From contig JAZULD010000080.1 in assembly GCA_045643625.1 (NCBI GenBank), forward strand, positions 1 through 42,221: DNA of 42,221 nucleotides. Reading direction: 5' to 3'. Positions 39,598 to 42,221 of the stretch are shown here, in pieces. Each line of letters begins with the position of its first letter. The stretch's first letter is position 1. Source of the stretch: Acetatifactor sp. GTDB lineage: Bacteria; Bacillota; Clostridia; Lachnospirales; Lachnospiraceae. The notes under the pieces are model-generated. The model was not told the DNA's origin. It saw only the letters and a list, made by a program, of their open reading frames with translations, and did not search any database. Both the position numbers and the translations under genes were made by a program.

Positions 39598-40353
39598 ATG
39601 GCACAGATGGACGAATTCCGCGCAGAGCGCGAAGCAATCAAATCAGCAGGTCTCAAGACGAAGATCGCATATTTCTGGGAGTACTACAAGTGGCACAGCA
39701 TCGTAGCCGTTGCGCTTCTTGCCTCCATGGTCTTCATCATTCACAGCTGCGCGACCAACACCAAATCAGCCCTGTATGTGGCGATGATCAACACCCTTCC
39801 CCACGGCGACGCGGAGGTGTACGCCGAGGAGGTTGCGGAGAGACTTCACGTGAACGCGCCCCGCACCAACGTGGTCTTCGATCTCGGCATGTACATGAAC
39901 TTCGACGACTTTGATACCAACACCGCCTACGCGGCTCAGAAGATGATGGTACTCCTTGCATCCGGCGATGCGGACCTGATGATCACCAACACCAAGTCCC
40001 TCGAGTACTACGCCTACAACGATACCATGTGCGACCTGCGCGACATCATGACTCCCGAGCAGATCGAGAAGTATGAGCCCTACTTCTTCTACCTGGACGC
40101 TCAGGTCCTCAGGGACAAGATGGAAGCCGACAACAATCTGGATATCACCTACGAGGTGCCCTACCCCGAAGATCCTTCCGATCCCACCACCATGGCCGAG
40201 CCCATTCCCGTGGGCGTCTACGTGGACGGCTGCAGCGAGCTTATGGACCGCTTCTACTTCCACGAGGGACGCGTGGCATTGAGCGTGATCGCAAGCGCCA
40301 AGCATGTGGACCTGGGTCTTCAGTATCTGGATCTTCTCTTTGAGGAGCAATAA
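39598..40353 (+). CDS. Conserved hypothetical membrane-anchored protein, solute-binding-protein-like outer domain
   Basis: GAAAGGA RBS; KIAYFWEYYKWH then one TM helix; K.MV.LASGDADL.I and DL.D motifs recall sugar-binding proteins. Confidence 0.7.
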   Translation: MAQMDEFRAEREAIKSAGLKTKIAYFWEYYKWHSIVAVALLASMVFIIHSCATNTKSALYVAMINTLPHGDAEVYAEEVAERLHVNAPRTNVVFDLGMYMNFDDFDTNTAYAAQKMMVLLASGDADLMITNTKSLEYYAYNDTMCDLRDIMTPEQIEKYEPYFFYLDAQVLRDKMEADNNLDITYEVPYPEDPSDPTTMAEPIPVGVYVDGCSELMDRFYFHEGRVALSVIASAKHVDLGLQYLDLLFEEQ

Positions 40354-40372
40354 AAACCGTCAGAATAAAAAT

Positions 40373-40426
40373 AAAGCCCGAAGGGAAACGACCGAAACGG
40401 TCCGCCCCCATCGGGCTTTTCTTTTT
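40373..40426. terminator. Terminator (probably bidirectional) between convergent genes
   Basis: AAAGCCCGA.GGG...GACCGAAACGGTC...CCC.TCGGGCTTTT flanked by A- and T-rich runs. Confidence 0.8.
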
Positions 40427-40456
40427 ATGCTTTTTTACTCTTTAAGCTTTTTCGCT

Positions 40457-41107
40457 TTATGCTTTGGTTGCAAACAAGACTCTGCGGAATAAGTCCGCGG
40501 TCTTCTCCTCGCCGATCGCCTTCTTGAAGACATCGGTGGAGGGACCTCCGTTCTTAAGCAGACCTTCCACATAGACGCCTGCCTTCTCGCGCTTTACTTC
40601 CGCGTCACAGGCGCCGGCATTCTCGCTGTCCTTTAAGAAGCCCGCCATGTAGCGGAGGGTCAGCTCGTCAAAGAAGGGGCTTTCCTTCTTTTTGCCCTTC
40701 TTGGCCAGACTTACGGGAAGCTTGATGGAATCGTACCAGTGACTGCCCACATTGTGCTCGGGAAGAGAGCTGCCGCCAAGCTTTGCACGCTCTGTCTCGG
40801 TCATTGCGGTGCTGCCCACAAAGGTATCGTAGATTTCAAAGATCAGGGTGTCATTGCCCATGGCAAGCACTCTGTCGTAGGACAGAAGGGGCATATCCTT
40901 CACGGTAGGGTTCACGATCAGGGTGTCCATCTTCATCAGTCCGAAGAATCCGCCCGCACGCATCACAGACACAGCTCCAAGGCCCTCAGCCTCGAAACAA
41001 CGTACAACAAACTTCATGCCGTTTGCCTTTAAATGCGCATATTCGCCGGGATCCTTCTCGGTCAGGGGATATTTTTCACCGATCTGTTTTAACAGCTTAT
41101 CGATCAT
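40457..41107 (-). CDS. Hypothetical protein with ferredoxin-dependent bilin reductase (PcyA/PebA/RCCR)-like motifs
   Basis: 216 aa; DTLIVNPTVKDMPLLSYDRV and C-terminal Y...L...GP...VF.KAIGEE.T..LF..VLF; start overlaps the upstream stop (ATGA). CDS confident, family call tentative. Confidence 0.6.
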   Translation of the reverse strand: MIDKLLKQIGEKYPLTEKDPGEYAHLKANGMKFVVRCFEAEGLGAVSVMRAGGFFGLMKMDTLIVNPTVKDMPLLSYDRVLAMGNDTLIFEIYDTFVGSTAMTETERAKLGGSSLPEHNVGSHWYDSIKLPVSLAKKGKKKESPFFDELTLRYMAGFLKDSENAGACDAEVKREKAGVYVEGLLKNGGPSTDVFKKAIGEEKTADLFRRVLFATKA

Positions 41108-41730
41108 ACCTGCGCCTCCACATTACTCTCGCGAAGGCCTGCCTTGTGCAGGATCAGTACACCTGCAAACAGGGCGCCCTGGGACACAATGTTGATGCTC
41201 TGCTCAAGCCAGTTGACCCAGGAGGCGGTGGAATCGAGACGTCCCGCATAGCCCATGCCCATGGATGCCACAAAGGCGATCACGAACAGAAGGATGGGGA
41301 ATTTCTTCTTCATGCGGCCTGCCAGAATACCGAGGCATACGCACATCATGCCAAGTCCCAGCACCATCATGACAAGGAACAGCACGGTGCCTGTAAAAAG
41401 AGGCGGTGCAACTGCCAGGAGAGCATTATCCTTCCTGCGGCATACCAGCATGAGCATGGCGATGCCTGCCATCAGGAAGCCTAAGGACTGGGTGGGCAGG
41501 AATAAGGTATTTAATGCGTGGAAATCACAGATGCCAGCAGCGTAGAGCAGCTTCCAGACTGCCTTTAATAAGCCTGCGCAGAACACGTCGATGGTGCCTG
41601 CGGCAAACAGGGCAAAACAATACTTGGTCATCTTGTGGTAGAGGTCCTTCATCATGAGAACGGTGGACACCGCGAAGAATACCACGGGGATGAAGTCTAC
41701 CAGAGCCATAATTACACTAAACTCGTACAT
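41104..41730 (-). CDS. Hypothetical polytopic membrane protein (~6-7 TM)
   Basis: GGAGGAG RBS, ATG 41730; hydrophobic helices with intramembrane polar residues (D, K..WK, Q, EQ..N..Q). Confidence 0.8.
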   Translation of the reverse strand: MYEFSVIMALVDFIPVVFFAVSTVLMMKDLYHKMTKYCFALFAAGTIDVFCAGLLKAVWKLLYAAGICDFHALNTLFLPTQSLGFLMAGIAMLMLVCRRKDNALLAVAPPLFTGTVLFLVMMVLGLGMMCVCLGILAGRMKKKFPILLFVIAFVASMGMGYAGRLDSTASWVNWLEQSINIVSQGALFAGVLILHKAGLRESNVEAQV

Positions 41731-41748
41731 TTTTTCTCCTCCGGGCAA

Positions 41749-42219
41749 TTACTTCTCTTTCACAAGGTGATAGAGAGGGATAAAGGGAATCAGGATGGGG
41801 GTTGTGCTCACATAGTCGCGGTACTCTTTCTTGTCGCCGTAGTTCTTGTTCTGGCGCTTCTCCAGACGCTGAGCGCCAGAGAACATGATGTACACGATGC
41901 ACACGTAGCCGAATACGGAAACGGCCCACTGCCAACCCTGCAGCACATTCAGGCCGGAGACAAAGCAGCCGGTCCAGACCAGGATCTCACCAAAGTAGTT
42001 GGGGCAGCGGCACAGCTTGAACAGGCCCTGGGTGGCGACCATGTTGGGGTTTGCCTTCTTGGCAGCGGACTTCTGCTTGTCGGCAACGGCCTCCATGGTA
42101 ACGCCGATGGCCATAATGGCAGCACCGACCCAGGTCAGCACATCGCCGCCAATGGAAGCACCGCCGTTGACCAGCCGGTACATCACGGGGGACACCTGCA
42201 TGGGGTACAGCATCGCCAT
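41749..42219 (-). CDS. DUF1295 / steroid 5-alpha-reductase-like membrane oxidoreductase, 5' end outside the window
   Basis: E.VAD.QK..AK, GLF...R.PNYFGE...W.G, LE.RQ...YG...EY..Y...TP.LIP; the frame is open to the window edge. Confidence 0.85.
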   Translation of the reverse strand: MAMLYPMQVSPVMYRLVNGGASIGGDVLTWVGAAIMAIGVTMEAVADKQKSAAKKANPNMVATQGLFKLCRCPNYFGEILVWTGCFVSGLNVLQGWQWAVSVFGYVCIVYIMFSGAQRLEKRQNKNYGDKKEYRDYVSTTPILIPFIPLYHLVKEK

Positions 42220-42221
42220 CA

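Follow-up and report, generated by a model that had tools for sequence, protein, structure and literature searches.

A conserved operon of gut Clostridia that pairs a bilin-reductase-fold protein with membrane reductase-like proteins: organization, distribution and candidate substrates

Gene organization at the contig end

Contig JAZULD010000080.1 from the Acetatifactor sp. assembly GCA_045643625.1 ends in three closely packed minus-strand genes, which code for a DUF1295 membrane protein, an uncharacterised membrane protein (hereafter MEM) and a soluble protein (hereafter FDB) predicted to adopt the fold of the ferredoxin-dependent bilin reductases (FDBRs) and red chlorophyll catabolite reductase (RCCR). 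The window, i.e. the whole stretch of 42,221 nucleotides (nt) that was analysed, is this complete contig (C80) of a genome, G000, which is 82% complete. The features at its end are:

41749..42221, minus strand: 3' half of the DUF1295 gene, cut by the contig end; 5-alpha-reductase-like membrane protein by its Pfam matches
41731..41748, minus strand: 18-nt spacer with a GGAGGAG ribosome-binding site, read from the sequence
41104..41730, minus strand: MEM, 208 amino acids (aa), with 6 long helices predicted from a structural model and 2342 homologues
40457..41107, minus strand: FDB, soluble 216-aa protein of the FDBR/RCCR fold by model, fold search and profile
40365..40428, no strand assigned: hairpin flanked by A/T tracts, a likely bidirectional terminator (z -5.3 on both strands)

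The original prediction, which was made from the sequence alone, had described three minus-strand open reading frames (ORFs), a GGAGGAG motif in an 18-nt gap and an ATGA overlap; all were confirmed, the ATGA being shared by the stop of MEM and the start of FDB. The terminator that it placed at 40373-40426 was likewise borne out by the hairpin at 40365-40428, which folds on both strands (-34.1 kcal/mol, z -5.3) and whose stability was equalled by none of 200 shuffled sequences. This hairpin lies between the operon and a convergent ORF at 39598-40353, and is likely to be a bidirectional terminator common to both. The convergent ORF, on the plus strand, codes for a 251-aa protein with an N-terminal hydrophobic stretch and without a family match. 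A single RNA run (assembled contigs, word share 0.04) covered 4 of 30 bins.

A conserved six-gene operon

Loci containing FDB homologues were gathered by a scan of GTDB genomes; the counts below concern the best 80 of 197 loci, among which kin are not independent, and the counts of upstream genes leave out loci with too little sequence (for instance, 70 loci offer at least 1.5 kb upstream and 60 at least 3.4 kb). Clustering of their ORFs revealed a recurring order, namely a TetR regulator, a 308-aa flavin split-barrel protein (FLV), a 287-aa atypical short-chain dehydrogenase/reductase (SDR), DUF1295, MEM and FDB, ahead of which an alpha/beta hydrolase (ABH) often stands. MEM is upstream of FDB in 61 of 76 loci and is accompanied there by DUF1295 in 56 of the 70, while four upstream genes precede FDB in order in 47 of the 60; the ATGA coupling between MEM and FDB recurs in 49 of 63 loci. 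The genes in the window are the 3' half of this conserved operon, TetR-FLV-SDR-DUF1295-MEM-FDB, and the conservation of MEM and DUF1295 before FDB exceeds chance. Continuation of the operon past the window edge, as originally predicted, was also upheld, with relatives carrying two further oxidoreductase-type genes and TetR upstream. The proposal that the three genes form a unit holds in that the operon is conserved beyond chance, but 16 of the 80 FDB loci lack a cassette gene upstream (two of these for want of sequence). One genome divides the set into FLV-MEM and SDR-DUF1295-FDB (L178, L196).

The end of another contig of the same genome, C168, carries TetR, FLV, SDR and the 5' part of DUF1295. 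The DUF1295 pieces at window 42056-42221 and C168:1-166 overlap by 166 nt, 120 of which are identical (72%), so the two ends belong to different alleles or copies. We guess at an allelic bubble at this point, because two DUF1295 genes were seen in none of the loci mapped and because, in the overlap, the contig of a relative agrees with neither version. It is likely that C168 and C80 join into one operon; read contigs bridging them were looked for and none joined the two. The genome also has a more distant DUF1295 (31-35%) on contig C6, and ABH was not found in it.

Immediately before TetR, an exact palindrome, TGAAC-N2-GTTCA, was seen in 47 of 62 TetR-headed loci (57 of 62 allowing one mismatch). 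It is likewise exact in 17 of 35 loci headed by ABH, in 3 of 53 headed by FLV and in 0 of 18 headed by FDB. Two exact copies, about the number expected by chance, occur in the genome under study, one of them at C168:2838 right before tetR. From its position and symmetry, this palindrome probably serves as the TetR operator. The ABH proteins have an N-terminal hydrophobic stretch (20 of 20) and a GHSLGG motif (19 of 20), features of a membrane-anchored serine hydrolase that is a putative esterase.

Some loci (L008, L011, L012, L019, L021 and L022) have genes convergent on FDB: one for a corrinoid protein, one that is methyltransferase-like and, often, the membrane gene f12. In several of these loci a gene labelled by eye as a corrinoid activator sits upstream of TetR. 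Elsewhere f12, which has no Pfam match, lies behind FDB or FLV in the same orientation.

FDB displays the fold of bilin reductases

Homologues of FDB form 2459 clusters at 90% identity. The structural model of FDB (pLDDT 97.8) matched PebA with a Z-score of 20.4 (rmsd 3.1, 210 residues aligned), followed by PcyA (19.8), HY2 (19.6), GtPEBB (19.3), RCCR (17.1) and coproporphyrinogen oxidase (14.5); unrelated folds scored at most 5.7. The ten PDB representatives with Z of at least 8 were FDBRs, RCCR, coproporphyrinogen oxidases and one chloroplast motor subunit. This Ycf2-FtsHi motor subunit (8xks_P / 8xqw_H) has the FDBR fold, with a Z of 17.5 to FDB. A Foldseek comparison of FDB with GtPEBB gave an E-value of 2.4e-8, and a profile of 130 FDB sequences matched the GtPEBB structure 6qwq (E 0.0025). 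At E of 0.1 or less, PF05996 was recovered by 53 of the 130 family members (best 9.9e-12); the window FDB itself has no Pfam or NCBIfam match, and the homologue P0381 reached 29.6 bits on PF05996 against a cut-off of 31. A route by sequence only did not suffice: single-sequence and narrow-profile searches of the PDB missed the link to FDBRs, which the 130-sequence profile and the fold recovered. The modelled FDB has the FDBR/RCCR fold over its full chain, and the call of the third gene as FDBR-like is therefore sustained by the Z of 20.4 to PebA and the family profile match to GtPEBB.

This fold is shared over the whole chain with PebA, PebB, PcyA, HY2, PebS, PcyX, pre-PcyA and RCCR (Z 13.5-20.4); with the FDBRs FDB also has in common detectable sequence homology and a central Asp, the structural alignments being 6-17% identical. 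In contrast to them, it has a Gly at the position of the second Asp of PebB, no linked ferredoxin was found, it comes from gut Clostridia in which no haem oxygenase was found, and it is the last gene of a membrane reductase-type operon. The central Asp of FDB, D78, aligns with chain position D101 of 6qwq, which corresponds to Asp99 of GtPEBB by a deduced offset of 2 that also gives Arg215 and Asp219. In the FDB family this position is Asp in 119 and Glu in 6 of 130 sequences. The equivalent of Asp219 is G188, with Gly in 121 of 130 (by a weak profile alignment); another Asp, D192, lies four residues past it (96 of 130). Both Asp99 and Asp219 are essential in GtPEBB, according to the available text of PMC6755814. 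On these residues FDB is not a PebB-type member and its catalysis is only putative; without the second essential Asp, the ene-reductase role that the original prediction had given it is a candidate role at most, and that proposal is weakened.

Haem oxygenase (PF01126) was not found in the genome under study, 82% complete as it is, nor in any of 25 hand-picked FDB genomes of the 80, which are metagenome-assembled genomes of unstated completeness and for which the controls rang in 3 of 14; a tetrapyrrole would therefore need to be imported. Linked ferredoxin or flavodoxin genes, a search for which had been suggested, were not borne out, since no such family recurs in the FDB loci. A crude 4Fe-4S motif scan of the 80 loci gave one small ORF near FDB (L082), along with larger proteins and a truncated ORF at a distant locus edge. 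Relatives of FDB were not found in viral contigs with a narrow alignment; the Atlas clusters nearest to FDB by features are phage PF05996 proteins. A co-fold of MEM and FDB scored 0.00, with no controls folded.

An FDB subfamily (P0381, P0384, P0369; L005:1345-2166) has an N-terminal anchor or signal peptide and is likely to be extracellular. In P0391, from a single contig, an FDB 64% identical to that of the window is fused to a GDSL esterase domain, and a weak search of proteins of 481-2000 aa gave one longer fused FDB form only.

DUF1295, MEM, SDR and FLV

The DUF1295 piece matches PF06966 (E 9.6e-26) and PF02544 (Steroid_dh; E 1.2e-9), both over cut-off; against ICMT it reaches 14.6 bits (cut-off 24), and the NCBIfam methyltransferases are far below cut-off. 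In relatives the full-length protein has about 262-270 aa. The sole PDB match of the family profile was 7c83, a 3-oxo-5-alpha-steroid 4-dehydrogenase (E 6.5e-4), confined to a 27-residue CPNYxGE stretch, so that its likeness to PbSRD5A and SRD5A3 consists of the two Pfam matches and this stretch. DUF1295 can be described as steroid 5-alpha-reductase-like, as the original prediction had it; its further casting as an ene-reductase is less secure, for the reductase activity is putative, the family profile and CPNYxGE motif being the evidence for it.

MEM has no Pfam or NCBIfam match. Its model has six long helices (pLDDT 85) and its family has invariant buried polar residues, D12, K56, K60, N173, N180 and Q184, in agreement with the earlier description of a polytopic protein with buried polar residues. 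We could not assign a fold: the best match, ACER3 (Z 9.5, rmsd 4.8, 188 aligned), tied with GPCRs and a designed barrel, and thus was no better than that of generic helical bundles; the Atlas neighbours of the MEM homologue P0188 were DUF6962 (0.94) and YhhN (TM 0.59, below the bar). CREST hydrolases have three conserved Zn-binding His; in MEM only one His column is at least 85% conserved, H195 (71 of 80).

Classical SDRs, including those acting on alcohols and ketones, have a Tyr four residues before a conserved Lys. The operon SDR is of the NAD_binding_10/NmrA type, with invariant Asp31 and Lys127 and with Met123 at the position of the catalytic Tyr. BciA, ChuY and biliverdin reductase B are members of the atypical SDR class; the operon SDR likewise belongs to the NAD_binding_10/NmrA type without the catalytic Tyr and is at most a candidate orthologue; an NCBIfam search named none of these tetrapyrrole reductases. 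BciA is an NADPH-dependent 8-vinyl reductase (PMC7242693, in the text available).

FLV has a Flavin_Reduct domain in 23 of 24 members, and its profiles matched only one PDB entry, the FMN-binding protein 1eje (E 0.023). It is 80-91% identical among the operon loci aligned.

Core and accessory genes

Two further samples were a single family-level draw of 300 genomes and a class-level draw of 398 other genomes; in these counts too, related genomes are not independent. In the former MEM occurs in 11 and FDB in 4 genomes. DUF1295 and MEM stand in one cassette in 10 of the 11 MEM genomes, and FDB follows them in only 1 of these 10; MEM is present in 3 of the 4 FDB genomes, against the overall rate of 11 in 300. 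Among metagenome loci, 28 of 80 led by FLV have 3.4 kb downstream, of which 7 read SDR-DUF1295-MEM-FDB, 6 end at MEM and 8 are without a cassette gene, and FDB is present in 7 of 13 SDR-DUF1295-MEM loci. FDB occurs in 4 of 36 same-genus genomes and was not found in 400 genomes of a phylum-level draw (13 listed as of the same class or closer). DUF1295 with MEM, usually joined by SDR and FLV, is the core; FDB is accessory, because few cassettes of DUF1295 and MEM carry it. The three-gene neighbourhood originally proposed is thus conserved when viewed from FDB (56 of 70 loci) but not when viewed from the cassettes, most of which are without it. No gene family recurs beside stand-alone FLV beyond kin.

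The core is also carried by a named isolate, Butyrivibrio fibrisolvens D1, whose pNP243 (L198:7383-10277) contains the palindrome, TetR (WAA20_RS20600), SDR, DUF1295 and a short, 174-aa MEM, with no FLV or FDB found within 16.8 kb.

Comparison with the bile-pigment reductases

The old yellow enzymes BilR and BilV resemble the operon in its proposed logic, the reduction of a pigment from host or diet by gut Clostridia, but no old yellow enzyme with HGDR or AHAH is among the recurring families of the operon and BilR does not track with it. An association of BilR with the operon was rejected, as BilR is not enriched among FDB genomes (3 of 50, compared with 14 of the 300 family-draw genomes). The genome under study has, at C101:4523-8473 (L202; L199, L200), a tandem of long-form BilR and a BilV-like gene with an AHAH motif, in the same layout as in G876; the motif is taken from the accessible text on BilV (PMC13278186). 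Another old yellow enzyme, of about 690 aa and with HAVHEGY in a representative, is common in FDB genomes. Among 13 loci fetched from such genomes (L203-L215), 11 have it next to aconitase X and to a gene for a 147-aa protein, and its copies are mostly 80-89% identical. It was set aside, given that it belongs to a separate AcnX locus and that the genome under study has no close copy (30% at best).

Candidate substrates

In chlorophyll, the diet offers a tetrapyrrole, ester bonds and an allylic isoprenoid within a single molecule. We favour, with a probability of roughly 0.35, an inducible cassette that reduces an imported, poorly soluble, chlorophyll-derived dietary pigment. We put this first because the FDBR fold, the co-regulated esterase, the isoprenoid-type reductase and the hosts would then all be explained by a single compound. 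TetR would repress the operon, and binding of the substrate to TetR would free TGAAC-N2-GTTCA; where present, the anchored esterase sharing the palindrome would remove an ester group outside the cell, and MEM might bind the molecule or carry it across the membrane. There SDR and DUF1295 would reduce C=C bonds with NAD(P)H, DUF1295 possibly acting on the phytol-derived part, and FDB would bind the tetrapyrrole part via D78 and add a further reduction, for which FLV, an FMN split barrel, might supply the electrons instead of ferredoxin. The cell might gain detoxification or electron disposal. In the accessible text of PMC13193486 the FDBR fold is otherwise limited to RCCR and coproporphyrinogen oxidase, both tetrapyrrole-binding, and in that of PMC13446030 pre-PcyA variants bind porphyrins. 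In 5 of 24 FLV members the C-terminus matches PCP_red, a domain of a proto-chlorophyllide reductase subunit (best E 8.2e-5). Also counted in favour are the retained central Asp of FDB, the Met at the Tyr position of the SDR, the palindrome that TetR- and ABH-headed loci share, the genome that divides the set in two and the presence of MEM in 3 of the 4 FDB genomes of the family draw. Of 21 GTDB titles that name a host (counted by eye; 59 of the 80 name none), 20 name a ruminant and 1 a human.

Several observations weigh against a pigment. The only strong tetrapyrrole clue sits on a dispensable gene, FDB being missing from most core cassettes. FLV occurs in 27 of the 398 class-draw genomes, only 2 of them with FDB, and 20 of its 23 class-draw loci are without cassette neighbours. 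Its PCP_red match is weak, and PCP_red is not known to us to bind pigments. The solved relatives of the SDR are NDUFA9, SimC7 and epimerase-like proteins, and no tetrapyrrole enzymes. A hydrophobic stretch occurs in the first 70 residues of 8 of 150 FDB proteins, some with an anchor or signal peptide; together with the Gly at the position of the second Asp, such anchored or secreted forms suit a binding role better than ferredoxin-fed catalysis. The host count was drawn, with no background for comparison, from the best 80 of 197 matches to a query of herbivore type, and 18 of the 20 ruminant titles are from caecum, colon or rectum, 19 of the 20 being below the bile duct, so that bile-borne compounds fit as well as forage. 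The steps proposed above, from induction to reduction, are conjectural.

Nearly as likely as such a pigment is a steroid or lipid: the core of SDR, DUF1295, MEM and often FLV may hydrogenate a lipophile other than a tetrapyrrole with an activated C=C bond, such as an oxo fatty acid, a plant phenolic, a 3-oxo-delta4 steroid or a derivative of a plant sterol; FDB would then be an accessory carrier that has drifted. The DUF1295 piece exceeds the Steroid_dh cut-off and has CPNYxGE in common with bacterial steroid 5-alpha-reductase, only one of the ten family-draw cassettes of DUF1295 and MEM has FDB, and B. fibrisolvens D1 manages with the palindrome and TetR-SDR-DUF1295-MEM. This proposal leaves unexplained why a tetrapyrrole-enzyme fold that keeps the central Asp is ATGA-coupled to MEM, and the SDR is without the Tyr of alcohol and ketone SDRs. 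Its precedents are, as far as the available texts go, the partnership of an SDR with a 5-alpha-reductase-type enzyme in DHRSX/SRD5A3 (PMC11250103) and the adjacency of DUF1295 to fatty-acid-binding DegV genes (bioRxiv 10.1101/2021.02.16.431466). Bile pigments, through reduction of a terminal ring as in the step from urobilinogen to stercobilinogen, or biliverdin, seem improbable to us. They would suit the reduction of terminal-ring double bonds of bilins by FDBRs (PMC13193486), the want of a known enzyme for that step in the accessible parts of PMC13278186 and PMC10769871, the sites below the bile duct, and the presence in the genome under study of BilR (1041 bits, cut-off 750) beside the AHAH-motif gene. 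BilR, on the other hand, was found in only 3 of the 50 FDB genomes taken from the first 50 of the 80 loci and in 0 of 12 family-draw genomes positive for MEM or FDB, a single host-named title is human, and the bilR contig, which has 117 nt left upstream of bilR, contains no exact copy of the palindrome.

Alternatively, FDB and perhaps also the SDR might bind without catalysis, the cassette serving to sequester a toxic hydrophobic tetrapyrrole (haem, a porphyrin or pheophorbide) and to export it instead of reducing it; we give this a low probability of the same order as the bile pigments. The second catalytic Asp is lost, anchored or secreted forms exist (P0381, P0384, P0369), an FDBR-fold chain (8xks_P) is part of a chloroplast motor complex, and the best single-sequence PDB matches of the SDR are to NDUFA9, which is not known to be catalytic; yet the identity of FLV across operon loci is high, DUF1295 retains its reductase-type motif and no recognisable exporter recurs in the loci. 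Least probable, and very much so, is a loose mobile block of genes with separate jobs and no common substrate: FLV, FDB and MEM are each also found alone, and the distribution of FDB is patchy at genus and family level, but a single palindrome goes with a small set of families that recur in many different arrangements, including an SDR beside a divergent FDB (L229).

Novelty and implications

Our literature searches found no paper on this operon, consistent with the earlier statement that no pathway with this gene set is described; supplementary trees of FDBRs might hold this clade. No mention of Clostridia, Bacillota or Firmicutes was found in the portions of the main texts of PMC10151467, PMC13193486 and PMC13446030 at hand. 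PMC13193486 mentions two uncharacterised clades in its available part, and these could include the FDB family. The operon is real, undescribed as a system and built from known kinds of enzymes.

According to the accessible text of PMC10151467, all known enzymes of the FDBR fold depend on oxygen. With the FDB family, which has about 2,460 clusters at 90% identity and comes from gut Clostridia in which searches found no haem oxygenase, this fold would have its first anaerobic use. Gut steps without a named enzyme, in the parts of the literature searched, include urobilinogen to stercobilinogen and chlorophyll to phylloerythrin. The palindrome and TetR provide a direct route to the inducer, and the core is carried by the named rumen isolate B. 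fibrisolvens D1. A more far-reaching proposal, which we consider unlikely though worth stating, is that the TetR regulon underlies, at the genetic level, the breakdown of chlorophyll in the guts of herbivores: the esterase would cleave phytyl or methyl esters, SDR and DUF1295 would saturate double bonds of vinyl groups or of phytol, and the tetrapyrrole would be the target of a bilin-reductase-fold lineage that works without oxygen. If true, this breakdown would lead toward phylloerythrin, which is linked to livestock photosensitisation, and toward phytanic acid, which is found in dairy and meat fat.

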